IMG/VR virus record: IMGVR_UViG_3300006316_000001
Location: 1-64,000 of that record
Strand: one strand, 5' to 3'
DNA: 64,000 nt
DNA from: a virus
The position numbers and the translations under genes are program-made. The stretch's first letter is position 1, and each line of letters opens with the position of its first letter. Below are positions 27,807 through 57,451 of this stretch, piece after piece. The notes beneath the pieces are model-generated. The model saw nothing but the letters and a program-made list of their open reading frames with translations, did not search any database and had not been told where the DNA came from.

Positions 27807-30164
27807 TTATGCGAAGAAGAAATCACTTTCTCTAACTTCTGACGCTTGAAGATCGCCCATCTCAAAGAAATCCGTGTAGTGAGGTAGGTTGGCTGCAGCT
27901 TCGTATTCACCATTTTCTCGTAAGAAGTCGACCCATTGATCGAACCACTTCTGCGGCCAGTTCTGTTCGTAGATGTCAACCCACGCTTCCTTAGCCTCAT
28001 GAAGAAGGGTTGCTGCATCATCAGGAGCTGAACCGAAAGAATCGTGAACCATAGCAAAATCTTCAATACCAACATCCTCACAACGATTGGTCGTAATGGA
28101 TAGATGGCTAGCATCACATGAGTGTGTTATGTTAGGTGAGCTTGAGCTCTCCATCTTAGCTTTGTTGATTTTGTTTGTATGGGTCAACATCTGGTAGTTC
28201 GTGTGCTTACCGTTGAATCTGATGTTAATATTCTTACGCTTCAGAATCTTCGGAGATTGTATGCATTGCATTCCGGCTGGGTTATCCCAAATCAACGGTA
28301 GGTTCACGGATGCTATGATACCAGCACAAGTTTGAACCCATTCCATGAATGCCATTGGACCCTTCAGCGATTCATCCATATTATCCCAAATACGTTCACC
28401 CATCCAGTTACCCGATTTAAATGGGTCACTGAAGTGATCTTCCTTACCACTATCAATGATGAACTCTTGGATACCCTCTTTTATGCCGTACAATTTCGCA
28501 CCATATGAACGAGTCATAACTGGTGTCTTAGTAATTTTACGGTCAAGAAGATTCGATGATAACCACTCAACGCCAAACGGACTACCGACGCCACGCAAAT
28601 CGCTAATCACACCATCACAAACATAACCATAAACATCACCACGCTTCTTAGTCTTAATTAGACCAACGTGGGGAGCAACAATACGGTCTCGTGTGATAGC
28701 AGCCAAGTTTTGAACGCCATTACACAAACCATCAAGTTGAACGTGGGTATTGATGAATGCTTGAGGGTTATCCAACCACTTCACATATTCAACAGCAGCC
28801 GCATAACCTTGGAATGGCTTATCCCAACCATGCCACAATTGACATTTGATAGGGTCTTTCACAACATCACGAAGAAGTTGCTCATTCGCTATAGTCCAAG
28901 CCACACGCTCATCAAGCTCAAGCTTATCATGACCGACAAGGTTGGCCATATTGATCATCATCCATCGAGCACCATCTAACGTTTTGACCTGTGTTGGTTT
29001 GAATTTGATCAAGCCTTTCTGATGGTCTGACCCCTGTGTATTTAGACCCGTCATACATTTATTGTAAATGCGCATACGAGAATCTAAGTCATGCGGAAAG
29101 AATATCTCAGGATAATCCTTGAACATTCTAGCCTGTTCAACTGAAGAACATCTCGATAGAATATTTGATACTCTACCTTGGCGCTTCTTCTTATTCAGTC
29201 GAACCTTTCGGCTCCACTTTCGGTGAATCTTTTTCTGGTCTTCGCTCATATCCGCATATTTGACATTAGGAAATGGCGCATTCTCATCATCAGGAACTGA
29301 CGCTGGGAATGCCTTCTTCAAAGATTCTGGACCATCTTCACCATATTGGTCAAAAAGGTTTAGTACATCAAGATTTACAGACCATGGTGTGCTTTGAATT
29401 GCGTTCATACCCTTTGCAATGTTCGCATTTATATTAGCATCTTCACCAACGTTCCTCTTCTTGATAGCATTAACCTTCAGTTGATCGCTATAGAAACCGC
29501 CATTATTACCCGTACTATCCCAATACTCAGGACGGTAGATCATCGGATAGATAACGTTGTTCATCATGGCAATGTTCTGGAGCTTACTTTCATATTTGAC
29601 GCGAAACTCTTCAGAGAGACCAACTAACCACTCCATGTGTTTAGAATCTGTATCAAAGAAATCTTTTCTGAATGTCAAAATATCAGTGAAGTTATCCTGA
29701 GCCAGTTGCAGAAGAACAAGAGAAACCTTACCACACTCAAACACACTCAACGCATCATCACCAACAATATTCGAATGAATTGTGTTACCAATTTGTGTGG
29801 ATATGTTAACGACCTTAAGATCACCATTCGCCATGTTAGTCATCAGTGAGCGCATAACAATGAATGACAATTGATCAGGAGTTGCCGGAAGATATTCAAA
29901 ACCAGTCTTGGTGTTCTTCTTGTTGATATAAAATCTCGCGTCACTGATCTTCATTAGCAGTGGTTTGTGCCCACTCTTATAGTTGACGCGCTCTTTTGCG
30001 GTGGCACTCTTGATTGCGCCTGTTAAACGCTCAATCATTTTCTCAAGAGTCTTTACCAGTGGACTATTGAAGTCATCGCTGGCTTCAACCGTCTCAAGGA
30101 ATTTCTCAGTACCTAGCCGCATCATATCATCTTCAAGTTGTATTTGATCATCATATGTCGACAT
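27807..30164 (-). CDS. T7-like single-subunit RNA polymerase
   Basis: FPHDLDSRMRIY, LDGLCNGVQ (motif A), RKITKTPVMTRSYG (motif B), PNITHSCDASHL, VHDSF (motif C), C-terminal SDFFFA. Confidence 0.95.
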   Translation of the reverse strand: MSTYDDQIQLEDDMMRLGTEKFLETVEASDDFNSPLVKTLEKMIERLTGAIKSATAKERVNYKSGHKPLLMKISDARFYINKKNTKTGFEYLPATPDQLSFIVMRSLMTNMANGDLKVVNISTQIGNTIHSNIVGDDALSVFECGKVSLVLLQLAQDNFTDILTFRKDFFDTDSKHMEWLVGLSEEFRVKYESKLQNIAMMNNVIYPMIYRPEYWDSTGNNGGFYSDQLKVNAIKKRNVGEDANINANIAKGMNAIQSTPWSVNLDVLNLFDQYGEDGPESLKKAFPASVPDDENAPFPNVKYADMSEDQKKIHRKWSRKVRLNKKKRQGRVSNILSRCSSVEQARMFKDYPEIFFPHDLDSRMRIYNKCMTGLNTQGSDHQKGLIKFKPTQVKTLDGARWMMINMANLVGHDKLELDERVAWTIANEQLLRDVVKDPIKCQLWHGWDKPFQGYAAAVEYVKWLDNPQAFINTHVQLDGLCNGVQNLAAITRDRIVAPHVGLIKTKKRGDVYGYVCDGVISDLRGVGSPFGVEWLSSNLLDRKITKTPVMTRSYGAKLYGIKEGIQEFIIDSGKEDHFSDPFKSGNWMGERIWDNMDESLKGPMAFMEWVQTCAGIIASVNLPLIWDNPAGMQCIQSPKILKRKNINIRFNGKHTNYQMLTHTNKINKAKMESSSSPNITHSCDASHLSITTNRCEDVGIEDFAMVHDSFGSAPDDAATLLHEAKEAWVDIYEQNWPQKWFDQWVDFLRENGEYEAAANLPHYTDFFEMGDLQASEVRESDFFFA

Positions 30165-30166
30165 GT

Positions 30167-30433
30167 CTATTTACCTTTAATTCTTGGTTGAATGTGGCAC
30201 CATGCGTCAGCCAGAGTTTTGAGATCAGGAAGAGGTCTCTCATCATGAAGACAATCCACAAATTCAATCTTACGTAAATCAGTGGGTACTGTGCTAGTGA
30301 AGTGTATCTCATTTGTCACATTTTCGGGGATCTCTTCACCATCGAAAAACTCGTCAGAAAGTGAATGAATAGCATCCATAGTTGAATGCCCCTCAACCAA
30401 AAAGTCGTTAATAAATTCTTCAGAAAAAGCCAT
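30167..30433 (-). CDS. acidic hypothetical protein co-transcribed with RNAP
   Basis: 88 aa, CAGGA RBS, 2-nt gap to the RNAP start. Confidence 0.65.
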   Translation of the reverse strand: MAFSEEFINDFLVEGHSTMDAIHSLSDEFFDGEEIPENVTNEIHFTSTVPTDLRKIEFVDCLHDERPLPDLKTLADAWCHIQPRIKGK

Positions 30434-30451
30434 ATAAATATCCTGTGGGGT

Positions 30452-30471
30452 TTCCTATTAGCCTTCTATTG
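30452..30471 (-). promoter_or_regulatory. putative phage-RNAP promoter (copy A)
   Basis: Exact CAATAGAAGGCTAATAGGAA, intergenic, pointing at the RNAP gene. Confidence 0.75.
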
Positions 30472-30504
30472 GGAAAGGGAAACCGCATGTTTTATGTCAA
30501 AAAA

Positions 30505-31236
30505 TTAACAAGAATGTTTTAGTGAACCTTGGGAAATTGCCTTACGGTCACCGAATGAAATAGGCTTAGGAAGACGTTCAACGCGAACGGTGAAACAATC
30601 CAAGCCTATGAATAAGAATAGATTTCCAGAGTAATGGTCGGAAAAATCGCCCATCCATAAAGCGCCTGTATTATCCATGCGCTTCACGCCCTTACCAGTG
30701 GCAGTTTTACTCAAACCATACCATATTTTGGTGGTACGTTTTATGTCTCCGGTGAGGCGACTGTTGCGACTCAATTCTCTAGCATTTATCGTGTTAGCTT
30801 GCTCAATAAAGAAATCCTGAATGTGATCGTGCATTTCTTCTGAGTGTACATCATCGTCAAGCTTTTGAGCCTTTCTATATTCTTTGAAATTGGTTACATC
30901 ATTATCTAGATCACACCATAGATTATGTTGTAGAATATCAACGAATTCGCCAGCCTCTATTTGCCCCACTTTCCGATTCAGAGAAAACTCTATCAGAAAT
31001 CTGTGTGGTTTTCGCTTGGCGCCATTATCGTACACCCTCACTCGGATGTCTTGAATTATATCACGGTATCCGGTGATTATGCCGTTGAAAGTCATATATT
31101 CCATACTTTTACCTTTGGTTATCTCACCAGTACTTTTGTCAATTTTATTTCTGGGTTGATCAAAAATTGAAAATAACCCAGTTTGAAGCAGAGCATGCTT
31201 AGTTTTGAAGCGCGACGGCTGGTCAAAAATGCTCAT
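30505..31236 (-). CDS. hypothetical protein
   Basis: 243 aa, AGGAGGAG RBS; SIFDQP occurs twice near the N-terminus. Confidence 0.7.
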   Translation of the reverse strand: MSIFDQPSRFKTKHALLQTGLFSIFDQPRNKIDKSTGEITKGKSMEYMTFNGIITGYRDIIQDIRVRVYDNGAKRKPHRFLIEFSLNRKVGQIEAGEFVDILQHNLWCDLDNDVTNFKEYRKAQKLDDDVHSEEMHDHIQDFFIEQANTINARELSRNSRLTGDIKRTTKIWYGLSKTATGKGVKRMDNTGALWMGDFSDHYSGNLFLFIGLDCFTVRVERLPKPISFGDRKAISQGSLKHSC

Positions 31237-31283
31237 AACGCGCTCCTCCTGTTAAACGTCGTTATCACATTACACTCTAGATC

Positions 31284-31646
31284 TTATAAGTTGAAGTATG
31301 GACCTCGAACCCAAGATGGATCAGCCTTACCGAATGTTGTAATACAGTACAAGTTCTCTTCAGCCCAAACCACCGCAATACATTCAATTGGAATGAATAC
31401 GCGATGCTCTTTACCACCACTAATCAATGTGAATGACATCCCAGATTCACCATTATGAAAGTGTTTTACTGTTGGACCACTCAAACATAGCCTAGCTCTG
31501 TGTGGATTCTGGAAAATGAAATCTGGTCCAATAAAGCCTTTACTGTGTACGAACATCACATTCACAGACCCGCCCAGTTCATCTATGATGTCTATTGTTG
31601 AATTGATCAATCTCATTTTGATGTGTTGTTTGGAAATATTATGCAT
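31284..31646 (-). CDS. SspB-like (ClpXP adaptor fold) protein
   Basis: L.LS...V..F......MSF....GG....VFIP...I..VWAEEN matches the SspB core. Confidence 0.6.
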   Translation of the reverse strand: MHNISKQHIKMRLINSTIDIIDELGGSVNVMFVHSKGFIGPDFIFQNPHRARLCLSGPTVKHFHNGESGMSFTLISGGKEHRVFIPIECIAVVWAEENLYCITTFGKADPSWVRGPYFNL

Positions 31647-31953
31647 CTCCCCTGCTCCTCTTACAAGTCTCAATGAAGTTCTCTAGGATTGCAGAAGAAC
31701 CACCTAAAGTTGTTTTTGAGATGTTTGTTGAGATGTTTATGATTTCGCCATTACATGAAGAGTTTAGTGTGATGTAAGGTGTATTGGTCCAATCCACTAA
31801 ACGAATATAGAAAAACGAACCATGGAGGAGATAGATCACACTGTCAGGCGTATCATCTTTCAGTTCAGCATTGTGGTGTTCTAGAATGGTTCTAAACGCA
31901 TCAGCGTACTCATTCAGTCTATCAACACCCTTCAAATTACCAGATATTCTCAT
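31639..31953 (-). CDS. hypothetical early protein
   Basis: First ORF after cassette copy 8. Confidence 0.65.
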   Translation of the reverse strand: MRISGNLKGVDRLNEYADAFRTILEHHNAELKDDTPDSVIYLLHGSFFYIRLVDWTNTPYITLNSSCNGEIINISTNISKTTLGGSSAILENFIETCKRSRGDA

Positions 31954-31974
31954 TACGTTGCAACCTCTACAGTA

Positions 31975-32044
31975 AGGGAAGACACTAACCCTAGCACTTT
32001 ACCCTATAACATCCATTATACTCTTATTTTACGAGAAGTAAAGC
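31975..32044 (-). promoter_or_regulatory. promoter-stem-loop cassette copy 8 (long hairpin)
   Basis: TTTACT-N16-TATAAT plus AGGGTAAAGTGCTAGGGTTAGTGTCTTCCCT. Confidence 0.8.
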
Positions 32045-32091
32045 GTTTTAGTTAAGTTTTAATGCAAAAAGAGTTCCCTCCTTGGAACTCT

Positions 32092-32379
32092 TTATTTCCT
32101 CTCTCGATAACCCATATTAATGAGGTTTGACAAGACGAGGTTATATTTACTCACTAGCACTATTTCCCACGCACCTTTGTGTTTAGCCCAAGGCTTTTCA
32201 CCACGTTTATGGAGTAGAACGAAACCGTGAAACTGTGAATTAGATAATCTGAATTCACCATTCAGATCATCGTCTTCTTGTTCTGTTATTTCGAATGTGT
32301 AGCTCCCGTCAGTATAACATCCGACATTAGTTACGGTAATGTCCAGCAACTCCTGTACAGAATCTAATAGTCTCTTCAT
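32092..32379 (-). CDS. hypothetical protein
   Basis: ORF in run. Confidence 0.6.
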   Translation of the reverse strand: MKRLLDSVQELLDITVTNVGCYTDGSYTFEITEQEDDDLNGEFRLSNSQFHGFVLLHKRGEKPWAKHKGAWEIVLVSKYNLVLSNLINMGYRERK

Positions 32380-32382
32380 AAA

Positions 32383-32475
32383 TCACCCTGATTCAAGTTC
32401 AAACATAAGTTCGTTGTATTCATCAAGTGTTATTTGTCCATTTTCGTATGCGTATTCTAACATTGACTGTGACAT
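32383..32475 (-). CDS. 30-aa SHOCT-like peptide
   Basis: MSQSMLEYAYENGQITLDEYNELMFELESG fills the gap; G.IT..EY motif. Confidence 0.45.
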   Translation of the reverse strand: MSQSMLEYAYENGQITLDEYNELMFELESG

Positions 32476-32484
32476 AAATAACCC

Positions 32485-33075
32485 CTAGAATGAGTATTGT
32501 ACACCCAGTGACGCAGAGAAGTCAGAGTTCTCAACAACACCGTAATCGAACACGTCATATCCGATAGAGCCGTAAATGTCAATCCCTTCCCAACCAGTTG
32601 TGCCACCAAGCTGAACTGAGTAGTATTTCACATCAACGTCACCCACGCTTTCTGATGTGTCATTGACTGTTGTACTCTCTTTACCTTGAGCGTCAATGGT
32701 TGTGATAGTTTGTGAACGTGATAATGTGACATCACCAGTTCCAAAACCGTATTCGCCTTTGATGAACGTTTGAACGCCAGAAAGGTCGAATAGATCGTAT
32801 GTGATGCCGAATGTGTAGATTTTGTTTTCTGCATCTTTACTATCATGGTAATATTCATCATACGTCTCGGTCTTTTTGACGCGAGTGAATTCCTTTTCTA
32901 GATTGGATTCACCAGTCATGTAACCAAATGAGAATGACACATCATCAATCTTTTGGCCAACCGAGAAGTGGGTGAAGCTATCGCCAGTCGCTTTGAATTC
33001 AGCGCGAACGAATGTCTCTGCGTTTACTGAAAGTGATGCTGATGCTATAAGTGTTGCTAAAATTAGTCGTTTCAT
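32485..33075 (-). CDS. outer-membrane beta-barrel protein (OmpA/Ail/Lom-like)
   Basis: Signal peptide MKRLILATLIASASLSVNA, amphipathic strands, C-terminal GVQYSF beta-signal. Confidence 0.8.
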   Translation of the reverse strand: MKRLILATLIASASLSVNAETFVRAEFKATGDSFTHFSVGQKIDDVSFSFGYMTGESNLEKEFTRVKKTETYDEYYHDSKDAENKIYTFGITYDLFDLSGVQTFIKGEYGFGTGDVTLSRSQTITTIDAQGKESTTVNDTSESVGDVDVKYYSVQLGGTTGWEGIDIYGSIGYDVFDYGVVENSDFSASLGVQYSF

Positions 33076-33096
33076 AATATTTTTCCTATTTTAAAG

Positions 33097-33167
33097 AGGG
33101 AAGTCTGTTACCATTAACGCTTTACCCTATAAGACACATTATACTCTTTTTATTGGAAAAGTAAAGC
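33097..33167 (-). promoter_or_regulatory. promoter-stem-loop cassette copy 9 (long hairpin)
   Basis: TTTACT-N16-TATAAT plus AGGGTAAAGCGTTAATGGTAACAGACTTCCCT. Confidence 0.8.
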
Positions 33168-33190
33168 GTTTTTAGTAACTTTTTAAAAAT

Positions 33191-33217
33191 AAAAAAAGGC
33201 TCCCCGAAGGAAGCCTT
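33191..33217 (-). terminator. intrinsic terminator
   Basis: GGCTTCC-TTCG-GGGAGCC followed by T-run. Confidence 0.8.
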
Positions 33218-33228
33218 TTAATGTGGTT

Positions 33229-33432
33229 TTAGAATTGCCTGAAGAACCAACCGATTAATGCAAGAACTGCACAAATTGATAGCGCAATACCTATCACAAC
33301 CACGGAAAATACTATGAAGCATATGTAAGAGATAAGCATCACGGCAAACTCAGCCCATCGGCAAATTGTTGATGCTATCCAAAGAATTGTTGCTGCTAAC
33401 CATTCAATACAATCAAGTGATTTACTTAGCAT
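33229..33432 (-). CDS. small membrane protein
   Basis: Hydrophobic 67 aa. Confidence 0.55.
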   Translation of the reverse strand: MLSKSLDCIEWLAATILWIASTICRWAEFAVMLISYICFIVFSVVVIGIALSICAVLALIGWFFRQF

Positions 33433-33950
33433 GGTATACCCTCACACAAGTCAGGTTTTCTATTACATACACGATAAAGCGGTTTCTTTATGCGCTGCCC
33501 TTTGATCTTAACGTCAGCGCCTTTATAGCCAACGCGAGTCAATTGGCGCTTGACACCAGTCAACTCATTAATGTATGGGCTATTGATTCCGCGATTGTAA
33601 AGAGAAATCAACTTTTCCAATTTGAAATATTCGCAACGGCTATTCATGACATGGAATCGCCCATTATCATTCGGCCATGTTGTCAAATAAAGACCTATGC
33701 TGTTAGCAAAAGCATTGAGTTTGTGCCAATGCTTTATGTCTATTCTCAATTTATGTTTTTGCTCAAATGTTTGTTTGCTCATTTCTGATACTCCTTCCAA
33801 ACTAGCCGTGTATGTCACGGTTCCCTTAATGGTATGTGACGTTATACGTGGCTCTTGGTTGGTGGGCGCTGGATGTATTTGTTTACCATCTATTGTCAAA
33901 GTACACACATCCGTGATTGTCACACCATTCACTTCTATTTCTATGCTCAT
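33426..33950 (-). CDS. hypothetical protein
   Basis: Coupled ORF in run. Confidence 0.55.
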   Translation of the reverse strand: MSIEIEVNGVTITDVCTLTIDGKQIHPAPTNQEPRITSHTIKGTVTYTASLEGVSEMSKQTFEQKHKLRIDIKHWHKLNAFANSIGLYLTTWPNDNGRFHVMNSRCEYFKLEKLISLYNRGINSPYINELTGVKRQLTRVGYKGADVKIKGQRIKKPLYRVCNRKPDLCEGIPC

Positions 33951-34252
33951 GATATTGGCCTATATGCTATTTCCGATTGTCTGATATCTTCCTTTTCCCA
34001 GTCATCCGGACAACGCACCAGTAACCCGTCCCGAATGCAATGATCGTTAATTCTCCACACATCATTGTGTAGTGAACCCCTAATCTCGATGTACCGCTTA
34101 CCTTCGATAGCAACTATTGGAGGGGTGTGCTCCCCAAAATGGATATAAGTATCGTCATGGTCATCACGACCATTCAGAATTTCATCTTCACCAATAACGC
34201 ACGCCTCTAGAGCCATTTCGCCACTCAAAGTATTTCTTGGATCAATCATCAC
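33947..34252 (-). CDS. hypothetical protein
   Basis: Coupled ORF in run. Confidence 0.55.
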   Translation of the reverse strand: MMIDPRNTLSGEMALEACVIGEDEILNGRDDHDDTYIHFGEHTPPIVAIEGKRYIEIRGSLHNDVWRINDHCIRDGLLVRCPDDWEKEDIRQSEIAYRPIS

Positions 34253-34255
34253 ATT

Positions 34256-34549
34256 CTACCCGAAAAGAGGACTAATGCTACTCTCAGCCAATTCCACATA
34301 CACATCACCGTGGCATGGTTTAGGCTTACAGAAACATCCTAGTCGTTTGCCTTGAAGAGAGTTGACCCGATCCCTGAATTCAGGGTCGGTATTATACCGA
34401 TGTATCGCGTACTCTCTATGTTTAGCGATAGACTGGGTTCTACCCAGCCCACCGAATGGATTACCGAAGTAGCCATCGCAACCATGCCCAGCCCTTCCGA
34501 TGTATACATCATATTCGTCAGTCTTGAGATTCACTACTGTTGTTTGCAT
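34256..34549 (-). CDS. DUF4326 family protein
   Basis: VVN.....YDVYIGR....FGNPF; L.GK.LGCFCKP..CHGDV. Confidence 0.8.
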   Translation of the reverse strand: MQTTVVNLKTDEYDVYIGRAGHGCDGYFGNPFGGLGRTQSIAKHREYAIHRYNTDPEFRDRVNSLQGKRLGCFCKPKPCHGDVYVELAESSISPLFG

Positions 34550-35153
34550 GATGTACCGTTCCTGATATAGTTCCGTCTTCTTCGACCAAATAATTAGTCA
34601 GTGACGTTGTGTATGGTGAGGTAGCAAAGGCTTCAACCCAAGCATCGAGGTTCTTTTGTTGATCGTCATAACAAATAACCTCTTCAGGCTTGAATTCATG
34701 GCGCATATAGTCGACTTTACTTAGACGCCATTGCTTATGACACTCATGGATAATTCGCTTGACATCATCAGGATTATCGATATTTGCCGTTAATGACTGC
34801 TCAGCTCGAATATATGCTTTGTTTCTGAAACAAAAATGATCAATTCGATGAACGTCAACTCCAAATTCAACTAACTGTTTCATAGTCATCATCTGATAAA
34901 TTGAATCATCAGGACGAGCAGAACATAACACAACTGTTGAGTTAGGATCAGCTATAGCTTCTTTCATTCGCTCGACCACAGTCTCAACCGCTGGTTGTTT
35001 GGACATGGTAGAAATGAATGTGTCCCAATTGAAGCCTTCACCAACCCAAGGGTGGTCATAATTATGCACCAGTGTACCATCAAAATCAAAAATGTGTAGC
35101 TTCTGCTTTACTTTATCATTCACATTCATCAAGTTTTTCCTTTTCTTCAACAA
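34518..35153 (-). CDS. HAD-superfamily phosphatase
   Basis: IFDFDGTL, LCSAR, K, YDD motifs. Confidence 0.75.
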   Translation of the reverse strand: MLKKRKNLMNVNDKVKQKLHIFDFDGTLVHNYDHPWVGEGFNWDTFISTMSKQPAVETVVERMKEAIADPNSTVVLCSARPDDSIYQMMTMKQLVEFGVDVHRIDHFCFRNKAYIRAEQSLTANIDNPDDVKRIIHECHKQWRLSKVDYMRHEFKPEEVICYDDQQKNLDAWVEAFATSPYTTSLTNYLVEEDGTISGTVHHANNSSESQD

Positions 35154-35242
35154 TTACAGTTTCGTGACACTTAGGGCAATCTACAAGATCACCATCTTTA
35201 GAATCTTCAGGCATATCCCAACAGATCCAACAACTATGGCAT

Positions 35243-35494
35243 TTAGCCTTCATCATCATTCTCCATGTAATCCACAAATGATCTATAAATGTACAGAAGA
35301 AATGCAGGTAACCACATAAGGGCAATCATACCACACATCTTGTGGGTGCCAATGTAGTTGATTGGGAATTTGTGATCAAGTTTACCCGTTCTCATGTATG
35401 TTATGAAATCAGGAATGACGATAATCAAGTAGGCGATTACAACTGTAACCAAGTAAATGCCCAAACCGATAAAAATGTTATTTAGGTAATTCAT
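35243..35494 (-). CDS. small membrane protein
   Basis: Two hydrophobic segments. Confidence 0.5.
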   Translation of the reverse strand: MNYLNNIFIGLGIYLVTVVIAYLIIVIPDFITYMRTGKLDHKFPINYIGTHKMCGMIALMWLPAFLLYIYRSFVDYMENDDEG

Positions 35495-35681
35495 GTTTTC
35501 TCTCCACTGCTACGAAACCGCCCTTTCCGTGAACAAGCTTAATGCCAGCCATTTCGAAGTAAGATGCACAAGTTTCAACTTCACCTTCAACCATACTGCC
35601 CGCATCACCACAATCATTCAACTGTGATAGTGATGAGTATAGTATCACCAATGTCTTTTCTGCTTCTGTTAGATATATCAT
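35478..35681 (-). CDS. hypothetical protein
   Basis: Coupled ORF. Confidence 0.5.
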   Translation of the reverse strand: MIYLTEAEKTLVILYSSLSQLNDCGDAGSMVEGEVETCASYFEMAGIKLVHGKGGFVAVERKHELPK

Positions 35682-35899
35682 TTCAACCCCTTAATCCATG
35701 CGATAGATTTGTTACGAGATCTTGAAATACTGAAGTGGGCAATGTTAGCATCGCGCCAGATGTAGATGCTATAGAATACTTCATTTTTGCGTGTGATTGT
35801 AACATCCATGGATAATTCAACATCATTACCCAACACTTTCTTAGCAACTTTTGAAAGATAAAGCTTTCGCTTCATCACCGAAATTAAAATATTGTCCAT
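35678..35899 (-). CDS. hypothetical protein
   Basis: Coupled ORF. Confidence 0.5.
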   Translation of the reverse strand: MDNILISVMKRKLYLSKVAKKVLGNDVELSMDVTITRKNEVFYSIYIWRDANIAHFSISRSRNKSIAWIKGLK

Positions 35900-35908
35900 A
35901 AGATTATC

Positions 35909-36229
35909 CTAGTTTATTTCTTCGACAAATGCCCATGCGGCATGATAAACTGAAGCACCTTTATCATCTCGCATACACACTGTATCCACAGGAGCGACAA
36001 CACGGTAAAGAACAGGTTCGCCACCAACGGAACGGGCAGCACGTCCTGCGTATATCTCAGCCAAACCTTTGTCCGCAGTGAAGAAGACTCTATCAAGGTT
36101 CTTCTTACGACCTTGCTCAGACAACACACCACTACACTCAGGCGGAAGAAGCATAGATTCTATACCAGCAGCCGAGCAACTACCGTGGTAGTATGTGGTT
36201 GTTTGGCGTTTACAATCTACTGTTATCAT
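35909..36229 (-). CDS. Arr-like ADP-ribosyltransferase-fold protein
   Basis: YYHGS...VFFT....LA..YA..A.......P.LY.V pattern. Confidence 0.55.
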   Translation of the reverse strand: MITVDCKRQTTTYYHGSCSAAGIESMLLPPECSGVLSEQGRKKNLDRVFFTADKGLAEIYAGRAARSVGGEPVLYRVVAPVDTVCMRDDKGASVYHAAWAFVEEIN

Positions 36230-36260
36230 TACTGTTACCCTCGTTTTAGAACCTTTGTTA

Positions 36261-39170: not shown

Positions 39171-39236
39171 ACTTTTTATGTGTATCTTTTCTATGTGTGT
39201 AAAAAAGGGCGATTGCCTAAACAATCACCCTTTGCA

Positions 39237-39431
39237 TTACATTGTGGACAGTAGATCTTTTGTATATTGGAAAGTGTTGGAGAATTCAGAATACCAATCA
39301 CATACATTCATTGTTAGGTATGCCACCATCAATCCTATAAATATACCAATAAACCATGCCGTTAATGCCAAACCGAGGATCACAATCCCCGTACCAACAA
39401 CACATGCAACCGTCTTCAGACCTTTGTGCAT
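39237..39431 (-). CDS. small membrane protein
   Basis: Hydrophobic 64 aa. Confidence 0.5.
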   Translation of the reverse strand: MHKGLKTVACVVGTGIVILGLALTAWFIGIFIGLMVAYLTMNVCDWYSEFSNTFQYTKDLLSTM

Positions 39432-39669
39432 ACTGATTCCTTACCAATAATCATTGGGGTCAATCATAATTATCATCATATTAATACCATTCTATTACTG
39501 TTAATGAAAGTTAATTTTACACCATTTACACCTCCTACCGCTACAACATGACATGTCTAATCATAACGGTAGGCATATGTATTATAAAGTATAAATACCC
39601 ATATGGATATAAAATAGATTTAATATAAATTGCACATCGCTCCAAGCCTACCGTCCATCATTATTCATG

Positions 39670-39990
39670 TCAATCACTCACTATTTCATTGCATGATTCA
39701 GCACAAAATGGTGAACCGCAATATTGACAACCTTCCTCTGGCCAATCTTCTTCCATAGTATTCCCCGATATTTCATTTAGTCCAATAACAAACAATATCC
39801 AACCGATCACCACCATCAATGCTAATGACGGTGCCAATAAATCCCAAGGATCATGCCCTTCTATTTCCAACCAAAGTGCAGTAGCAGCGCACATAGAAAT
39901 GAAAATAATTGAGATTCGCATAACCAGCTTATTATTGACCATAGTTTCCTCTTTATTTGTATTTATTAAACAAAAACAACATCCATTCAA
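39670..39990 (-). CDS. membrane protein with C-terminal Cys cluster
   Basis: Two TM segments; EGHDP loop shared with neighbour. Confidence 0.5.
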   Translation of the reverse strand: MNGCCFCLINTNKEETMVNNKLVMRISIIFISMCAATALWLEIEGHDPWDLLAPSLALMVVIGWILFVIGLNEISGNTMEEDWPEEGCQYCGSPFCAESCNEIVSD

Positions 39991-40165
39991 CCAAAACCAA
40001 TGCTGTGATTGTTGCAGCGCCCATCATGATTGTAATTTCCTTAGGATCGTGCCCCTCTGCGTAGTAACCTAAGAAAGTGAATACATACACAGGAATGGCG
40101 ACTAGTAAGAACAACATCGCATTCTTCATATCAACCACCACCAATTTTGACAATTTTCGACTCAC
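39953..40165 (-). CDS. small membrane protein
   Basis: TM-EGHDP-TM. Confidence 0.5.
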   Translation of the reverse strand: MSRKLSKLVVVDMKNAMLFLLVAIPVYVFTFLGYYAEGHDPKEITIMMGAATITALVLVEWMLFLFNKYK

Positions 40166-40529
40166 TTAGGGTTTCAGTGAGATCGCCATCAGAGATGCAT
40201 TGGAATACTTCATCCTTCGACACAGCCGAATGTATCTTCGATGGGTTGCCATTGTAGAACGAATCGTAGAAGAACAAATTCTCACTATCCTCCACTAGAA
40301 TGCCATACTCAGGACAGTCCACTTCAGGAAAATAATCTGGTTTGTTGCTTATGAAGAATGAGACCTTTCCTGTGCTGAAGTATGTCTTATAACCTTGCCA
40401 TTCGCAACATTCAGAACATGCAGCATCATTGGCAAATTCATCCCATTTGAGAGTACCAATACTCTGACATTTGCGGCATTTCTTATGAGAAACGTCTACT
40501 GATAGATTACCCGCTGATGTAAGCTTCAT
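40131..40529 (-). CDS. hypothetical Zn-binding protein
   Basis: CxxC...CxxC. Confidence 0.55.
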   Translation of the reverse strand: MKLTSAGNLSVDVSHKKCRKCQSIGTLKWDEFANDAACSECCEWQGYKTYFSTGKVSFFISNKPDYFPEVDCPEYGILVEDSENLFFYDSFYNGNPSKIHSAVSKDEVFQCISDGDLTETLSESKIVKIGGG

Positions 40530-40659
40530 ATTCCCTCCTTACATAGAGAATAGTGATGGTGCTTCGCTAAGAACTGTGAATATAGCTATGACGATCAATA
40601 TGTCAACTATATCTATCTTTCTCATGCTATGCATCCCATGTGTTAATTAGTACCATGGT

Positions 40660-41109
40660 TCACCTCTTTAATTCGAAGTCACCAGATTCATACATAGCAG
40701 AAGCAATGCACGCAAACGACCATTCACCTTCGCTACTGATATCTTCGGCAATCGCTTCTACCCTCTTAATGAATTTCTCACGTTCCGGAGATACACCATT
40801 GATTTCTTTCTGGTGGAATTTACCAGTCTGCTTATCTAGATAGAAATTGATGGTAATTCCTTGAATAGACAGAGTGTTCGTTTTATAACAATAATGGTTC
40901 TGTCTAGAGATTCCATTGACTAAAGTCCAAATCTCGGCACAGTTAGGTGTGTGTGGCCAGAACATTATTTGATGGTCTACTGAACCAACAGCACCACATG
41001 CTGTGCAAGAGAACGCTGACAATAGACCTTTCTGGCCAGTTCCATTACACGTCTCACATTTAACAAGCAGTCTTGTATCGACTACCTTTCCAACTCTTGG
41101 CCTATTCAT
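40660..41109 (-). CDS. hypothetical protein with DnaJ-like Zn finger
   Basis: CETCNGTG...CTACGAVG. Confidence 0.55.
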   Translation of the reverse strand: MNRPRVGKVVDTRLLVKCETCNGTGQKGLLSAFSCTACGAVGSVDHQIMFWPHTPNCAEIWTLVNGISRQNHYCYKTNTLSIQGITINFYLDKQTGKFHQKEINGVSPEREKFIKRVEAIAEDISSEGEWSFACIASAMYESGDFELKR

Positions 41110-41426
41110 TGTTTATCTCCTATCATTAGGTTGTACCATAATTGTGCCCTTTGTGTAAGCTCTACACATATGACACATTCAGCAATGTCGGCAATCTTAC
41201 CATCATCATCTAGCTTAATCGCCTCTAGACCATCAATAAGATCTTGAGCGATAGACATCTGGGAAAGCTTCCAATTCGGATCTACCTCTGCCTCAGATAT
41301 CACCATTCGCAATTCTTTTATTGCCTGAACCAATGAGGCTATAACCTCGAATCCTTGCTTATTGTTGTCTGTTTCCATTACATTCTCTCCACGATCACTG
41401 ATACAATGAATGCTATCACGATACAA
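41106..41426 (-). CDS. hypothetical protein
   Basis: Coupled ORF. Confidence 0.5.
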   Translation of the reverse strand: MYRDSIHCISDRGENVMETDNNKQGFEVIASLVQAIKELRMVISEAEVDPNWKLSQMSIAQDLIDGLEAIKLDDDGKIADIAECVICVELTQRAQLWYNLMIGDKQ

Positions 41427-41619
41427 CCAACAACACCCTTTACACCAAGCAGTTCAACACCACCAGCCAAGACAAGTAGACCACCAGCAACAATGACAAC
41501 ACAGCACCATATGATCATTTGAATTATTGTCATAACTGATTCTCCTTACGATCAGGAACCATTCCCAATCCTTAGAACCATTATACTCTATTGCGACTTA
41601 AAAAGAAACCTCTAATTTT

Positions 41620-42400
41620 CCCTATTTTATTCGCCTCCCTAGCCTGAACTTGTTTCACCTATTTAATACATATAGCGATAGAGACTAGGCATAGATAGAA
41701 CATACACTATTACTCTAATCATACATACTCTCCTATACATATACATACATACCATATAAGGAATAGACATAGACATAGTACGATAGACTATAGCATCATA
41801 CCATACTCCTAGCATAGATCATAGTACTGAGCATAGATAAGATTATATAGATAGAACATAAGAGAGAACAAGAACATGATAAGGTATCACTGCAATGAAT
41901 AATGCTCTGGGTCTGGATAAAAAATGTTACTGGTAAGTATAGGGGGAGTCTCTCAAAAATATGATATCTATGATAATAACCGCGCGATACCTAATTTCAC
42001 GTAAAAATAAAATCGTAATGTTTAAAATGATTTACCATCAATTAAGCTGAAACATACTAAAAACCCTGTCTGGCACAAGCGATTACGTTCATTACGTACC
42101 ATTTTAGCTGTAATAACGTTAGGTTTGTCCTAGGATGAAAATTAAAGGATTTAAGCTACCATATTCTGAACTCAAATTTCTCGAACTTGTTCAGACCCAG
42201 AGCAGCCAACAATCCCACCACAAAAGCCAACTACAGCCCACTGCAGCCAACCATTACCAACACATATTCCCCATAACCAAGAATGGCCAACCACAGTTAC
42301 CTGCAGCTAGCCATCTGTCCCGCGTCCCCCCGCATTAGTCCCCTAAGTTTTATCTAGGCACTATGCAAAATAGAATAATCTATCTAGGCACTATGCAAAA
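41620..42400. other. non-coding region, candidate cos/genome end
   Basis: No credible ORF; CATA/ATAG-rich tract, GGGGG..CAAAAA..ACCGCGCG..AAAAATAAAAT, A/C-rich tract. Confidence 0.45.
42351..42400. repeat. 20-bp direct repeat, 30-bp period
   Basis: TATCTAGGCACTATGCAAAA at 42351 and 42381. Confidence 0.9.
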
Positions 42401-42407
42401 CCGTATA

Positions 42408-43211
42408 CTACACATCATCCCAAGGCTTCGGAACGTTCAGAGCAGCTCTAGCGTGAACACCAAACCGCCCGTAGTGTCTCACACTTTGATTGGTTGTCTC
42501 TTCAGTTACGATTTGCGGAGACCGCACTGAACTATCAGAAGACACGTCAGCGTTGGGAAGGACACGAGAGCGCGCATCAACAAAATACGGTTTATCAGGA
42601 TCAATTCTATACCCGATAGAAACGTCTGGATCAGAAGCGCGTTCTACACCCGTTACTAACCCTGTTCCTGACCGAACGGTGATTGACACATTACCGATAG
42701 GATCTTCCAATAATTGTACCGTGTCAGGAGTGTCCGGTTCAGAATCCATTTCAATATCTTCGTCGTCGACAAAGAACAATTCAGATAATGACGGCTCTTT
42801 TTCTGAATGAGTTTCTAGTTGATTCTCGGCACTATCCTCATCGGCAGTGACATGGAGAGTTCTAACCAACCTAGCATGTTCTGGTAAGAATACCAATTGA
42901 GTGTACCCTTCATGAACGTGCTCTTCTGGAACATTATACACACCGATGCGAAGTTCTTCATCTTTAAGTTCTTGAGGTTTGAAGAACCAACGACGAAGAG
43001 ATTGTATTGAATCAAACCCGAATACATAATCAGATCTGTTATCCCAAATGTCATCCCATATATCACAAAGCTTACCATCTTCTTGAGGTACTGGGTGACG
43101 GGAGATATCTTGACTGATAATGTGTCGTGACGACGTTCGGTAGAATCCAGTATTGACATTTGGATGTGCGTTACTTTCTTCTGTTTTGTGTTCAACGCGG
43201 TATACAAGCAT
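42408..43211 (-). CDS. hypothetical protein with acidic C-terminal half
   Basis: GGAG RBS; VYRVE..HP.P..FGF.S...L.RWF domain. Confidence 0.65.
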   Translation of the reverse strand: MLVYRVEHKTEESNAHPNVNTGFYRTSSRHIISQDISRHPVPQEDGKLCDIWDDIWDNRSDYVFGFDSIQSLRRWFFKPQELKDEELRIGVYNVPEEHVHEGYTQLVFLPEHARLVRTLHVTADEDSAENQLETHSEKEPSLSELFFVDDEDIEMDSEPDTPDTVQLLEDPIGNVSITVRSGTGLVTGVERASDPDVSIGYRIDPDKPYFVDARSRVLPNADVSSDSSVRSPQIVTEETTNQSVRHYGRFGVHARAALNVPKPWDDV

Positions 43212-43220
43212 GATAGGCTC

Positions 43221-43523
43221 CTAGTATTTAGAAATGTGTTGTACAGTAACGCGATTCGTACCAGTCTCTCGAACCGCAATCTGAAGCCAATCGTAGTCTT
43301 TATTCTTCAGGCTGAATACACGGTAGCCTTCGTCAAGAAGTGCTCTAGCTGGTTCATCAGGTTGGGCGAAGATTAACTCATTGGTCACTGAGTTGTTCAC
43401 TTCGTACTCAGAGATGTAGTCACCTGAATCAGATTTGATTTCAGCGTTCTTACCGCCACCAATAACATTCACAAGGCGCATTGTAGTGCCGCGTGGTATA
43501 GTGATATTTAGTTCGTGTTTCAT
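43221..43523 (-). CDS. hypothetical early protein
   Basis: Start reassigned to MKHEL, downstream of the cassette hairpin. Confidence 0.65.
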   Translation of the reverse strand: MKHELNITIPRGTTMRLVNVIGGGKNAEIKSDSGDYISEYEVNNSVTNELIFAQPDEPARALLDEGYRVFSLKNKDYDWLQIAVRETGTNRVTVQHISKY

Positions 43524-43545
43524 AATTGGAGCCTTAATGATTAGG

Positions 43546-43603
43546 AGGGCTAACAACTAACCCTATAGCAACCATTATACTCTTATTAGCGGAGAAGTAA
43601 AGC
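43546..43603 (-). promoter_or_regulatory. promoter-stem-loop cassette copy 11
   Basis: TTTACT-N16-TATAAT plus AGGGTTAGTTGTTAGCCCT. Confidence 0.85.
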
Positions 43604-43661
43604 TTTTTAGGAAGGTTTTTATGCGAAGAGACCCCACTCTAGGTGAGGTCTGATATTGGTA

Positions 43662-44018
43662 TTATTTTGAGCTGAGTTTGGGACTAAATTCCTCTTGTTC
43701 ATAACTCCCATCACGTTGTAGTATTATGGAGATACCATTATCCTTTAGTCTTCTCTCCAATAATTGAAGTTTGTGGCGGAAATCCTTGCGGTCACTCTTA
43801 AATGCCCCAAATTTACTCCAGTTCAGAATGTTATCCAAGATATCTGCAATACTTGCGGGTGCGGCAGTTACTTTACTGTGTTTGAACATTAATATCTTGC
43901 CCGTTTCTCTATCTCGAAGACACGCTTCAATTTGGTCATGACCAACATACGAGAACATCTCAACACGACCTTCAACAATGAATGTACCTTCCTTATCATA
44001 TTTACAAGACATAATCAA
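43662..44018 (-). CDS. hypothetical protein
   Basis: Coupled to the sigma gene. Confidence 0.6.
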   Translation of the reverse strand: MIMSCKYDKEGTFIVEGRVEMFSYVGHDQIEACLRDRETGKILMFKHSKVTAAPASIADILDNILNWSKFGAFKSDRKDFRHKLQLLERRLKDNGISIILQRDGSYEQEEFSPKLSSK

Positions 44019-44941
44019 CCCTTATTATCTTCAGTGATGAAATCATCAAAGTGAACATCAGCCAAGTCAACGTAGAATCGAAGTTTCGATAAGCCATCAT
44101 TTTGAAGTTGACGGATTCGTTCTCGTGTTAGACCGAAGTGTTGACCACACTCTTCTAGTGTTTGATCTTCAAAGTAGCGCATTCTGATGATCTCGGAAAT
44201 GCGAGGTTTGATCACACCAAGATAAGTGTTCACATATTTATTGAATGCTTCAGGATCAACATTCAGCGCGTTACCATCTTCATCGGCTATGTGATCGTGA
44301 TGATCTAAGAAGTCCATAGGTTTACCATCGTCACCTTCAACGATTAGTTCATCGAAGCCTCTGATCGAACCACACATGAGTTTGATTGCGCTTCGGATAG
44401 ACGTTCTAGTCAGACATGATTCATTGAGGTTCTTTTCTTTGACGTACGCAGAAATGATGTCAATGGCATCAACAGAATCAACAACCGTATTGGCTTGGCG
44501 AAGAGCTGCACGGGAAACCTGCATAGCACGACCAATGTGAACAGGATATCTCATGAATTGGTCAACGTGACCTTCCATCATGTATCGTACTATACTCTGA
44601 CGAATCCATTGCATTGAGTACGTTGATAGTTTGAAGCCGCTTTGAATGTCGAATTTATCGATAGCGATCATCAGACCCATCATACCTTGGTTAAATAGGT
44701 CAAGGTAAAACTCCTCACGGCCAGCACCTGAATATTTTCTGGCCATCTTACTAACCAGTTTGATATTGTGCTTGATCAGCTCATCGCGAGCCCAAGCAAC
44801 CTGACCCTGTTGCCATAAATCGATTAGGATTAGCTCACGCCCTTTCTCAAGAACGGAATGATCCATGTAAGGTTTGAACATCTCAGGAAGTTCAATTCTA
44901 ACTACTTTTTGTTTAGCTCTCATACTACGGACTCCCTGCAT
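44015..44941 (-). CDS. sigma70-family (RpoD/RpoS-like) sigma factor
   Basis: Region 2 NIKLV..ARKY...DL.NQG..GL..AIDKFD...GFKLSTY..WIRQ; region 4 TLEE.G..FGLTRERIRQ. Confidence 0.9.
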   Translation of the reverse strand: MQGVRSMRAKQKVVRIELPEMFKPYMDHSVLEKGRELILIDLWQQGQVAWARDELIKHNIKLVSKMARKYSGAGREEFYLDLFNQGMMGLMIAIDKFDIQSGFKLSTYSMQWIRQSIVRYMMEGHVDQFMRYPVHIGRAMQVSRAALRQANTVVDSVDAIDIISAYVKEKNLNESCLTRTSIRSAIKLMCGSIRGFDELIVEGDDGKPMDFLDHHDHIADEDGNALNVDPEAFNKYVNTYLGVIKPRISEIIRMRYFEDQTLEECGQHFGLTRERIRQLQNDGLSKLRFYVDLADVHFDDFITEDNKG

Positions 44942-45201
44942 CCAATTAGAGAAATGTCTTCTTCGTCCTTATCTTCGAAAAATACGATATCAAGACCTTT
45001 TATCTTAAAATAATTTTTATTGGCGGTAACTTCGGCACCACCATTTTCAAACTGATCAGAAACGGCTTCAGCGTACGCAACCTGCCAATCATCATGGCTG
45101 AGTGAAACTGTCATATCACATCTACCCATTTCTTCATATCGCTTTATGATGTATTTGAGTAGTGACATAGAGAATAAGATTTCCATTACGCTTTCCCCCA
45201 T
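44920..45201 (-). CDS. hypothetical protein
   Basis: ORF in run. Confidence 0.55.
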   Translation of the reverse strand: MGESVMEILFSMSLLKYIIKRYEEMGRCDMTVSLSHDDWQVAYAEAVSDQFENGGAEVTANKNYFKIKGLDIVFFEDKDEEDISLIGCRESVV

Positions 45202-45392
45202 TTAAACATTCCAGTAACCATATCTTGCCCCATCCCAACACCATCAATGAATCCGGATAACTCCGCTTCGGACCAAAACTGCTTTGACCAATCAGTTCCA
45301 TTCAGCGTCAAGAGTGCGCAGTACTCTCCTTGTGGGGTGGTTTCAGTTTTGATGGTAAACCCACACAAACCAGCCTTAGCATTTAATTCCAT
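45186..45392 (-). CDS. hypothetical protein
   Basis: Start at MELNAK. Confidence 0.55.
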   Translation of the reverse strand: MELNAKAGLCGFTIKTETTPQGEYCALLTLNGTDWSKQFWSEAELSGFIDGVGMGQDMVTGMFKWGKA

Positions 45393-45393
45393 G

Positions 45394-45582
45394 TTATGAA
45401 TCCTTCTTGGTATTATCCGTGAAGCACCACACAATGGCCACTAACCAGAAGATTCCGGTGAACAGTCCAATAATGTTGCAAATAAGAATTGCAGCCGCGC
45501 TGTTGTGTTTTCGGTAGCAAGCTATGATCATTGGAGCGAACGCCAATACCGCAACCACTATAAGTAAAATTGTTGAAGCCAT
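45394..45582 (-). CDS. T4 Imm-like superinfection immunity membrane protein
   Basis: F.P.IIA..RKH....AI...N..G..TGI.W..A.VW pattern. Confidence 0.7.
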   Translation of the reverse strand: MASTILLIVVAVLAFAPMIIACYRKHNSAAAILICNIIGLFTGIFWLVAIVWCFTDNTKKDS

Positions 45583-45586
45583 GATT

Positions 45587-45838
45587 CTATCCTCTCATCT
45601 CATCGATGACAAATTGTAATCTATTCAGTTCGGCTTCCGAGGCACCTTTGAGGAAAGCTCTGATGCGCACTCGGGAACCCAGTGTTCGTTTGTTCTCAGA
45701 AGGTGCCGCTGTAGCACTTTCCTTTACCTTTTTAGCCTTAGTTGGTTTTGCTTCATGCATTTCATTAAGTAAGGCGGTCAGTTGCTTCTCCGCATTCTTA
45801 TGTGAGGCAGGCTTTGGACCAATATTAAACATATTCAT
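45587..45838 (-). CDS. hypothetical basic early protein
   Basis: First ORF after cassette copy 12. Confidence 0.65.
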   Translation of the reverse strand: MNMFNIGPKPASHKNAEKQLTALLNEMHEAKPTKAKKVKESATAAPSENKRTLGSRVRIRAFLKGASEAELNRLQFVIDEMRG

Positions 45839-45858
45839 TTAGTTACCCTTATATAAGA

Positions 45859-45928
45859 AGGGAAGCTGTTAACCTTAACGCTTTACCCTATAGCAACCAT
45901 TATACTCTTATAGTTTTAGAAGTAAAGC
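45859..45928 (-). promoter_or_regulatory. promoter-stem-loop cassette copy 12 (long hairpin)
   Basis: TTTACT-N16-TATAAT plus AGGGTAAAGCGTTAAGGTTAACAGCTTCCCT. Confidence 0.8.
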
Positions 45929-46163
45929 CTTTTATTAAAGTTTTTTAATGTTCTGATCGCTGCTTTGGGTCTCTATTGAAATGTTCCGTTTACATTTTTT
46001 TCTTTTTTAGTTTCCGATATTCTTGTCTCTAATTCTCTCTATTATATTATAACCCCCGTTATTTTCCTCCGGAACGATCAAACGATCATACGATCATTCA
46101 ATCATTCCTTCGAAAAGGTCACGGACACGCTCACGCGCATCCTTAGACGTTCAACTGATAAAA

Positions 46164-46278
46164 GCATGCTCGCGTAGCGACTGTGCACAGCACAGCACAG
46201 CACTACACTCCCACAACATTCAACAACATCTCACCAGAACATTCCTTATATTTCCCACACACACGCGCGCGAGCATGC
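46164..46278. repeat. 11-bp inverted repeat around a G-poor microrepeat tract
   Basis: GCATGCTCGCG 46164-46174 and CGCGAGCATGC 46268-46278. Confidence 0.75.
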
Positions 46279-46328
46279 ACACGAGAGAGACACTCGATAT
46301 GACCCAGAATGCCAGTTTAAGTGAATTT

Positions 46329-46348
46329 CAATAGAAGGCTAATAGGAA
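46329..46348 (+). promoter_or_regulatory. putative phage-RNAP promoter (copy B)
   Basis: Exact CAATAGAAGGCTAATAGGAA before the capsid paralog. Confidence 0.75.
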
Positions 46349-46440
46349 GGAAAGTGTGCTTTTTAAAACACGCGACCTTTCATTTTATTGATGGGATAAT
46401 TCGATTACCCCATATCAAAACTAATGAGTGGGGAAATGAC

Positions 46441-47565
46441 ATGCATTTCAATAAGAAACTGAGAGCTATTGTTCTCGAAGCCGCACCACAACTGAAGGAA
46501 TCCATTCTTGAAGTTTTGAAAGCGGATAATGGTGAGATGAAGCTTGACCTTTCACGTAAGGTTAAACTTGACGACTCACTAAAGCTTAATGTTAAAACAT
46601 TGGCGATCGGTGGTACTGGTGGTGAAGCCCTAGCTATCGATGAATTGTTAATGGCTGATATCACAGATCGTGCTATTAACCAATTCTCAGGTATTTTTAC
46701 TGACCTTGATATTTCAGTGATCAATTCAGTGAATCATCGCGGTCTTGTGGAGTTAAATTCTCTTGGTGTAACTAAAGGCGTTGAAAACGTTCCTGGTCTA
46801 CCACAGTCTATGACTCCAACTGGTGAACTTGGTCAGCTTGTATCTCAGGTAGGTAAGGCTGCTATCATTACTTTTGTTTCGCAAGAAGCAGTGCGTGATA
46901 CGATGAATGGAGATTCGGTTTCTCTATGGGATTATATAGTTGAATCGGCTGCGCGCCAAATCGTACATTACTTCTCTATTCAGATCATCGCTGGAGATGG
47001 TAAACCTGACCGTCTTCGTGGCTTGGTATCTTCTAAGCGTATTGATGATGAAGAATCACTGAAGCCTGATCATGAACGTGACCCAGATTTTCTGCAAGTC
47101 AAACTATCAGGTGTCGATGGTGATTTTGGTACTGACGATAAGACAGCAGTTGAGAACATTGTATTTTTCTTGAACTCGGTTCCTTCGAAGAATCGTGCCA
47201 ATAGTAAAGTGTATATGAACTCAACAACTCACGCTGCGATTGAACTTCTTTCTTCTACGTCACCTCGTTTACGATTTGATGAAAAGGTTGTCGATGGTCA
47301 ACTGGTTACTACCGTTAATGGTTTTGTAATCTCTCTTGACGATATGATGCCTAATATGGATATGGGCTCAATCCCTATGTTGGTTGGCGATATTAATGCC
47401 GCTATTGAGTTTGCTTGGCACGACAAACAAACTGTCGTTGACCCATTCTCGATTGACGGTGCTATTAAATATAGTCAGTTCCCGCGTGCTTCAGAGCGTA
47501 TGAAAGATAATACCGCTTTACGAGCCTTCAAAATGTCAGCTGAAGCGATTCCTGCTCCTAATTAA
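46441..47565 (+). CDS. second HK97-fold capsid protein paralog
   Basis: KTLAIGGTGGEALAIDE, GDGKPDRLRGL.SSKR, MP, VDPF shared with MCP 55773..57026. Confidence 0.85.
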   Translation: MHFNKKLRAIVLEAAPQLKESILEVLKADNGEMKLDLSRKVKLDDSLKLNVKTLAIGGTGGEALAIDELLMADITDRAINQFSGIFTDLDISVINSVNHRGLVELNSLGVTKGVENVPGLPQSMTPTGELGQLVSQVGKAAIITFVSQEAVRDTMNGDSVSLWDYIVESAARQIVHYFSIQIIAGDGKPDRLRGLVSSKRIDDEESLKPDHERDPDFLQVKLSGVDGDFGTDDKTAVENIVFFLNSVPSKNRANSKVYMNSTTHAAIELLSSTSPRLRFDEKVVDGQLVTTVNGFVISLDDMMPNMDMGSIPMLVGDINAAIEFAWHDKQTVVDPFSIDGAIKYSQFPRASERMKDNTALRAFKMSAEAIPAPN

Positions 47566-47597
47566 AACTTGGGTTCAGAAACACAGTTATAGGTTTT

Positions 47598-47617
47598 CAA
47601 TAGAAGGCTAATAGGAA
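47598..47617 (+). promoter_or_regulatory. putative phage-RNAP promoter (copy C)
   Basis: Exact 20-mer; copies B and C share 30 of 31 bp. Confidence 0.75.
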
Positions 47618-47619
47618 GG

Positions 47620-57426: not shown

Positions 57427-57451
57427 TTGAGTTTCCTGATTACAAAAAATG

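Follow-up and report, generated by a model that had tools for sequence, protein, structure and literature searches.

The first 64,000 nucleotides of IMG/VR virus record IMGVR_UViG_3300006316_000001 (the window), a 106,815-bp record from a 107-kb marine phage, contain a short repeated motif that, with a probability of roughly 0.8 judged from sequence, is the promoter of the T7-type single-subunit RNA polymerase (RNAP) encoded by the phage itself. An initial annotation of this DNA had read the motif as the cognate promoter of that polymerase, and both the sequence and its comparison with related phages support this reading: the motif is a contiguous block, its 3' end is like that of T7 and SP6 promoters, and its copies are in sense orientation. 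Further backing comes from a late gene arm without any host-type promoter cassette, a complete T7-type RNAP, and relatives that have no homologue of this phage's sigma factor yet have their own versions of the motif. We infer the binding, start site, timing, and feedback of the motif and polymerase pair from these features. The specificity is new, as the initial annotation had proposed, while the kind of system, a phage polymerase with its cognate promoters, is well known.

A search of the window finds the exact 20-nucleotide motif at the three places given in the initial annotation: 30452-30471 on the minus strand, and 46329-46348 and 47598-47617 on the plus strand. A fourth copy, missed by the initial annotation, is present at 16426-16445 on the minus strand and is identical at 17 of 20 bases, including an unbroken run of 13. 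No match was obtained in any of 100 dinucleotide-preserving shuffles of the window, even with up to three mismatches, and no further copy was found in the whole genome with up to six mismatches over 23 nucleotides. Two partial look-alikes were rejected: the one at 93.16 kb belongs to the ribosome-binding region of a sigma-70 promoter cassette, and the one at 87.50 kb has only the 5' half of the motif and is antisense. An 11-nucleotide half-copy of the 5' part of the motif (45972-45982, minus strand) points leftward in the region where the two gene arms diverge, and forms an inverted repeat (I2) with 46325-46335. This half-copy is probably a remnant, and may be a relic of the layout seen in relatives, in which copies occur in both directions and the RNAP gene adjoins the divergent region.

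The four copies are referred to here as P_A and P_B (the plus-strand copies), P_C (the minus-strand exact copy), and P_D (the variant). When P_A, P_B, and P_C are aligned, a single unbroken block of 22-23 bp is conserved and the outer flanks are unrelated, although P_A and P_B have 12 additional downstream bases in common. The 3' end of the motif reads TAATA followed by GGAAGG, with GC instead in P_D. An AATAG element 11 bp upstream gives the motif an internal direct repeat, AATAG-N6-AATAG, with an 11-bp period. The position 17 bp upstream of TAATAG, where a -35 element would be expected, is not conserved. In T7-family promoters, a single block of about 23 bp combines an A/T-rich element at its upstream side with a TATA-like stretch that directly precedes the starting G, and the initial sequence is purine-rich; T7 reads TATA followed by GGGAGA, and SP6 reads TATA followed by GAAGAG. 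The motif resembles the promoters of T7, T3, SP6, and K11 (Autographiviridae) in being a contiguous block of approximately 20-23 bp with an A/T-rich element upstream and a TATA-like element before a G, the presumed start, with purine-rich sequence after it, but its sequence is unrelated to theirs at the specificity positions.

The polymerase gene (27807-30164, minus strand) encodes a protein of 785 residues with a match to the Pfam family RNA_pol (1e-69), and is that of a complete promoter-specific polymerase of the T7 type, as judged from its sequence and predicted structure. When the palm and fingers are aligned to T7 RNAP, the motifs around T7 residues D537, K631, Y639, and D812 are kept, as is the C-terminal foot. 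An AlphaFold model built with 17 homologues has a mean predicted local distance difference test (pLDDT) score of 83.9 and contains a long beta-hairpin at residues 641-662, where T7 RNAP has its specificity loop; its N-terminal domain has two more hairpins. A full-length match of the model to T7 RNAP was obtained with Foldseek, with a template modelling (TM) score of 0.73 for initiation or early-transcription complexes and 0.63 for elongation complexes. The fold, catalytic motifs, specificity hairpin, and C-terminal foot are shared with the polymerases of T7, T3, SP6, and K11, but the phage protein is only 22-26% identical to T7-type polymerases and is about 100 residues shorter, chiefly at the N-terminus. 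Across relatives, the C-terminal half is conserved except in the segment aligned with the specificity loop, which varies. A DNA search with the RNAP region against a phage collection gave no match.

The genome is organized as two arms, with their point of divergence at 45.8-46.4 kb. The minus-strand arm extends leftward from 45.8 kb to position 1 and, should the record be circularly permuted, continues from 106.8 to 86.7 kb; it contains replication and nucleotide genes, a sigma factor gene, and the RNAP gene. The plus-strand or late arm (46.3-86.7 kb, about 40 kb) contains a capsid-family gene, endonuclease VII, two tRNAs, an HNH gene, terminase, portal, the major capsid gene, and tail genes. 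The late promoter candidate P_A (46328-46350, plus strand; exact motif) lies 92 nucleotides before the ATG (46441) of the capsid-family gene. The second late promoter candidate, P_B (47597-47619, plus strand; exact motif), is found 32 nucleotides past the stop codon of that gene and about 240 nucleotides before endonuclease VII, at the head of the late arm, with endonuclease VII, the two tRNAs, HNH, terminase, and structural genes downstream. The feedback promoter candidate P_C (30450-30472, minus strand; exact 20-mer) is 18 nucleotides before the ATG (30433) of an open reading frame (ORF) of 88 residues, in a 71-bp gap between a 243-residue ORF and the 88-residue ORF that precedes the RNAP gene. 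The variant candidate P_D (16424-16446, minus strand; 17 of 20 bases) ends 14 nucleotides before the ATG (16411) of a MazG-like gene, overlaps the final codons of the ORF upstream, and is followed by the MazG-like gene and then a family-B DNA polymerase gene. The distance from motif to gene start is thus 14-240 nucleotides for all four copies, three of which are intergenic and one of which overlaps the end of an upstream ORF; the orientation and placement upstream of gene starts described in the initial annotation hold at all three of its sites.

In related phages, the motif changes along with the polymerase. Protein and locus searches of IMG/VR and metagenome contigs gave RNAP relatives with 46-49% identity in G001 (85.6 kb), G002 (97.8 kb, the same phage as L002), L003, L004, and L013. 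The closest cultured phages, based on the DNA polymerase (60-63% identity), are the Vibrio phages henriette 12B8 (HQ316582) and 2.058.O (MG592662), which have an 874-residue single-subunit RNAP that is 30% identical across the C-terminal 477 residues. Gene order in the replication and virion regions is conserved between this genome and both G002 and henriette, and the syntenic genes of henriette and 2.058.O are 35-74% identical to those described here. De novo k-mer searches of G001 and G002 gave only host-type cassettes and paralogous gene repeats; the polymerase-linked repeats were found by reading upstream of the RNAP genes. A distinct repeat of 17-27 bp is present in each of five phage lineages whose polymerases are homologous to this one (26-49% identity).

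In G002, whose RNAP is 49% identical, the repeat is 27 nucleotides long and ends CTATTAGGAAGAG; two copies are directed toward the late arm and one toward the RNAP gene 400 nucleotides away. The late-directed copies are followed by tRNA-Met(CAT), as they are in the phage studied here, and at the right end of the contig another sense copy is truncated immediately before the terminase-side genes. Upstream of the L003 RNAP gene there are three copies, in both orientations, that end CTACTAG..GGAAGG. In G001 a distinct 17-mer ending GCGTATAAT occurs three times, twice toward the late arm and once toward the RNAP gene, in the same divergent layout. The repeat of henriette and 2.058.O ends CGTATGGAAGAAA, with one copy about 80 nucleotides before the RNAP ORF, another separating the RNAP gene from the late genes, and a third directed toward the replication arm. 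These two phages are like the one described here in having their own repeat ahead of the RNAP and late genes, with the ending ...TATGGAAG, but the upstream half of their motif differs and their RNAP gene immediately precedes the late genes and has the same orientation.

In four of the five lineages the motif has a common 3' end (...TAG/TATG-GAAG) and a different upstream half, and across lineages the repeat keeps its places in front of both the polymerase gene and the late genes. The motifs of this phage and of G002 have CTA(A/T)TAGGAAG in common, and most of their differences lie before it. A motif that changes with the polymerase at fixed genomic places is the pattern expected of co-diverging polymerase-promoter pairs, although this is an argument drawn from the sequences of five lineages and not a statistical test. 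The initial annotation had also proposed that the copy ahead of the RNAP gene is self-activating, and each of the five lineages examined has such a copy. In L004 and L013 the sequence before the RNAP gene gave no repeat, with only 344 bp of it available for L013. A search of IMG/VR with an exact 19-mer gave no match, and a degenerate 16-base pattern gave nine single matches in unrelated contigs without homologous genes, which were taken as chance.

The arrangement of copies in relatives also bears on a different explanation, in which a different DNA-binding protein of the phage uses the motif as an operator or activator site and so controls transcription by host or phage RNAP. The copies in G001, G002, and L003 are in compact clusters with inverted members in a divergent control region, one G002 copy is antisense, and the direct repeat within the motif has a period of 11 bp, all of which would suit such a site. 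In the phage studied here, however, the copies are not palindromic and occur singly, spread across 31 kb, with all four in sense; P_A and P_B have no accompanying host-type promoter; and the common 3' end resembles the initiation region of T7-family promoters. An operator is consequently regarded as improbable.

Host-type promoters are abundant in the genome, but are restricted to one strand. A k-mer count identified a cassette repeated about 23 times, with every copy on the minus strand (1151-45940 in the window, and 88224-104040 in the rest of the genome). Each cassette consists of TTTACT, a 16-bp spacer, and TATAAT, followed by a GC-rich stem-loop and then a ribosome-binding site, and together the cassettes are the early/middle promoter set of the phage. 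The late arm has no cassettes, and its 29 generic sigma-70-like matches are not above the 37 +/- 6 found in shuffles; initiation there is therefore expected to be by something other than a sigma-70 holoenzyme. The motif is the sole repeated signal at the head of the late arm.

The phage also encodes a sigma factor of its own (308 residues; 44015-44941, minus strand), located early in the minus-strand arm. It belongs to the sigma-70 family, has regions 2 and 4, and is RpoS/RpoD-like, which raises the alternative that host RNAP equipped with this sigma factor recognizes the motif as its promoter. TAATAG does match TATAAT at three of six positions. Since the sigma factor is RpoS/RpoD-like, however, a bipartite promoter with -35 and -10 elements would be expected, whereas the conserved block fills what would be the spacer and the -35 region is not conserved. 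The sigma-70-type cassettes are, from their sequence, the obvious candidates for its targets. No homologue of the sigma factor was found in G001, G002, or henriette, the three relatives searched, yet in G002 and henriette the corresponding places carry motifs that share the 3' end, while in G001 they carry a different 17-mer in the same arrangement. Recognition of the motif by the phage sigma factor, which the initial annotation had considered damaging to its proposal, is thus unlikely.

An element acting at the RNA level on longer transcripts, such as a processing site, leader element, or translational operator, would fit the sense orientation of the copies equally well and the resemblance of AAGG and GGAAGG to ribosome-binding sequences, but it is the least probable of the explanations considered given that the spacing between motif and start codon ranges from 14 to about 240 nucleotides, the four downstream leaders fold no better than shuffles (z from -2.0 to +1.5), and P_A stands first in the plus-strand arm, where no promoter on that strand lies farther upstream to produce such a transcript. 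The TATAAATA element at -10 of T4-type late promoters is absent from the motif, which speaks against that promoter type; homologues of gp55 and gp33 were not part of the search.

Several observations weigh against a promoter for the phage RNAP. Four copies are few for a 107-kb genome. Two strong intrinsic terminators, each a hairpin followed by U residues, directly follow the major capsid gene (57048-57065, at 57.05 kb) and the next small ORF (57450-57500, at 57.46 kb), and no copy of the motif lies beyond them; 29 kb of tail genes would therefore depend on read-through. The T7 specificity residues R746, N748, R756, and Q758 face N, N, T (or N), and Q in the phage protein, but with an alignment of 22-26% identity this residue-level match is only indicative. 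Among the relatives, the 17-mer of G001 does not have the common GGAAG end, G002 has one diverged copy (104-131) that is antisense to the late genes, and the tight inverted clusters, within about 120 bp, are a layout also possible for operators or origin elements. The closest RNAP homologue, P0002 (68% identity, on a 27-kb contig), was left out of the motif comparison.

If the motif is nevertheless the promoter of the phage RNAP, as seems most likely, then expression would begin with host RNAP reading the approximately 23 sigma-70-type cassettes on the minus-strand arm. The initial annotation had proposed that the RNAP gene is primed by host RNAP from a cassette at about 32.0 kb. That cassette is present (32042-32015, minus strand; TTTACT-16-TATAAT), and between it and the RNAP gene there are only two weak hairpins at chance level and no convincing terminator, so it is plausible that host RNAP makes the first RNAP messages from it; the cassette itself is thus found, and the priming is a plausible use of it. 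The new RNAP would then bind the 22-23-bp block, most likely starting at the GG after TAATA. From P_A and P_B it would transcribe the capsid-like gene and the 40-kb late arm, including endonuclease VII, the tRNAs, terminase, and virion genes; from P_C it would transcribe its own gene, giving positive feedback; and from P_D, a weaker variant, it would transcribe MazG and the DNA polymerase. In every lineage the copy directed toward the RNAP gene diverges from the late copies just past the presumed start: GGAAAC compared to GGAAGG in this phage, GGACAA compared to GGAAGA in G002, and GAATAA compared to GGAAGA in henriette. The first transcribed bases influence promoter strength in T7, and because they differ here the feedback copy may, by analogy, be weaker than the late copies.

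T7-type phages are similar in promoter and polymerase, but the genome described here is not T7-like: at 107 kb, it encodes a family-B DNA polymerase and a capsid protein of the HK97 type, and has only four candidate promoter copies, one of them before the RNAP gene; to our knowledge the T7 polymerase gene is read only by host RNAP. Xanthomonas phage Xp10, a siphovirus of about 44 kb, has its early genes transcribed by host RNAP and its late genes by its own T7-like single-subunit RNAP. This phage and Xp10 are alike in being long-tailed with that proposed division of labor, but we know of no promoter copy ahead of the Xp10 RNAP gene. Engineered T7 "autogene" circuits place the RNAP gene under its own promoter to give positive feedback. 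In contrast to these circuits, the arrangement seen here is natural, is kept in five phage lineages, and has an RNAP-directed copy that differs just past the presumed start. No papers on the transcription of henriette-type phages were found, and a paper on Alteromonas phage AltAD45 (PMC3821669) was set aside because it concerns N4-like phages and has no bearing on this question.

The motif and RNAP are a candidate polymerase-promoter pair of new specificity from a little-studied group of marine phages of about 100 kb. This reading would account for the expression of a 40-kb arm of virion genes that has no host-type promoters, and the promoter copy ahead of the polymerase gene in five lineages suggests a built-in feedback switch. 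Bench work on the idea could draw on the two Vibrio phages of this lineage that are in culture, and a possible link to modified DNA adds practical interest. It is conceivable, though on balance doubtful, that the RNAP reads its promoter in DNA with hydroxymethyluracil-derived bases in place of thymine and may even need them, with the feedback copy serving as a natural, lineage-wide switch to late expression. If so, the phage would provide an orthogonal polymerase-promoter pair suited to modified templates.

The 88-residue ORF between P_C and the RNAP gene (30167-30433, minus strand) abuts the RNAP gene and has no family match. The capsid-family gene between P_A and P_B (46441-47565, plus strand) matches Pfam Phage_capsid (4.7e-14) and a PHROG major head protein; this gene was looked for in G001 and not found. 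The endonuclease VII gene (47856-48335, plus strand; PHROG 423, 2.1e-30) is the first ORF past P_B, and the leader of about 240 nucleotides between them (47620-47855) is free of ORFs, with no special fold in its first 100 nucleotides. ARAGORN predicts the tRNA-Met(CAT) of the late-arm leader at 49196-49273 (plus strand). The gene downstream of P_D encodes a MazG-like pyrophosphatase (15917-16411, minus strand; PHROG 2144, 2.6e-24).

Other repeats were observed in this genome and in its relatives. In henriette 12B8 (L027, 95836-98270), four cassettes composed of a short hairpin (AACGGGGCACGTTGTCCC) and a ribosome-binding site are located ahead of small plus-strand genes, and form a repeat family separate from the polymerase-linked motif. 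At the start of the G002 contig (L014, 1-140), a 47-bp sequence is repeated twice and followed by a diverged plus-strand copy of the motif, and the end of the contig (L018, 17780-17805) is within a minus-strand copy; if the ends join, the two copies diverge about 100 bp apart. The non-coding stretch between the two arms of the phage studied here (46070-46300) has an 8-bp tandem repeat (46074-46105), CA/CG-rich tracts of alternating purines and pyrimidines, and an 11-bp inverted repeat (46164-46174 and 46268-46278), and may be an origin or other control region. Comparable CA/CG tracts adjoin the motif clusters in G002 (L014, approximately 5200-5290) and L003 (247-493).

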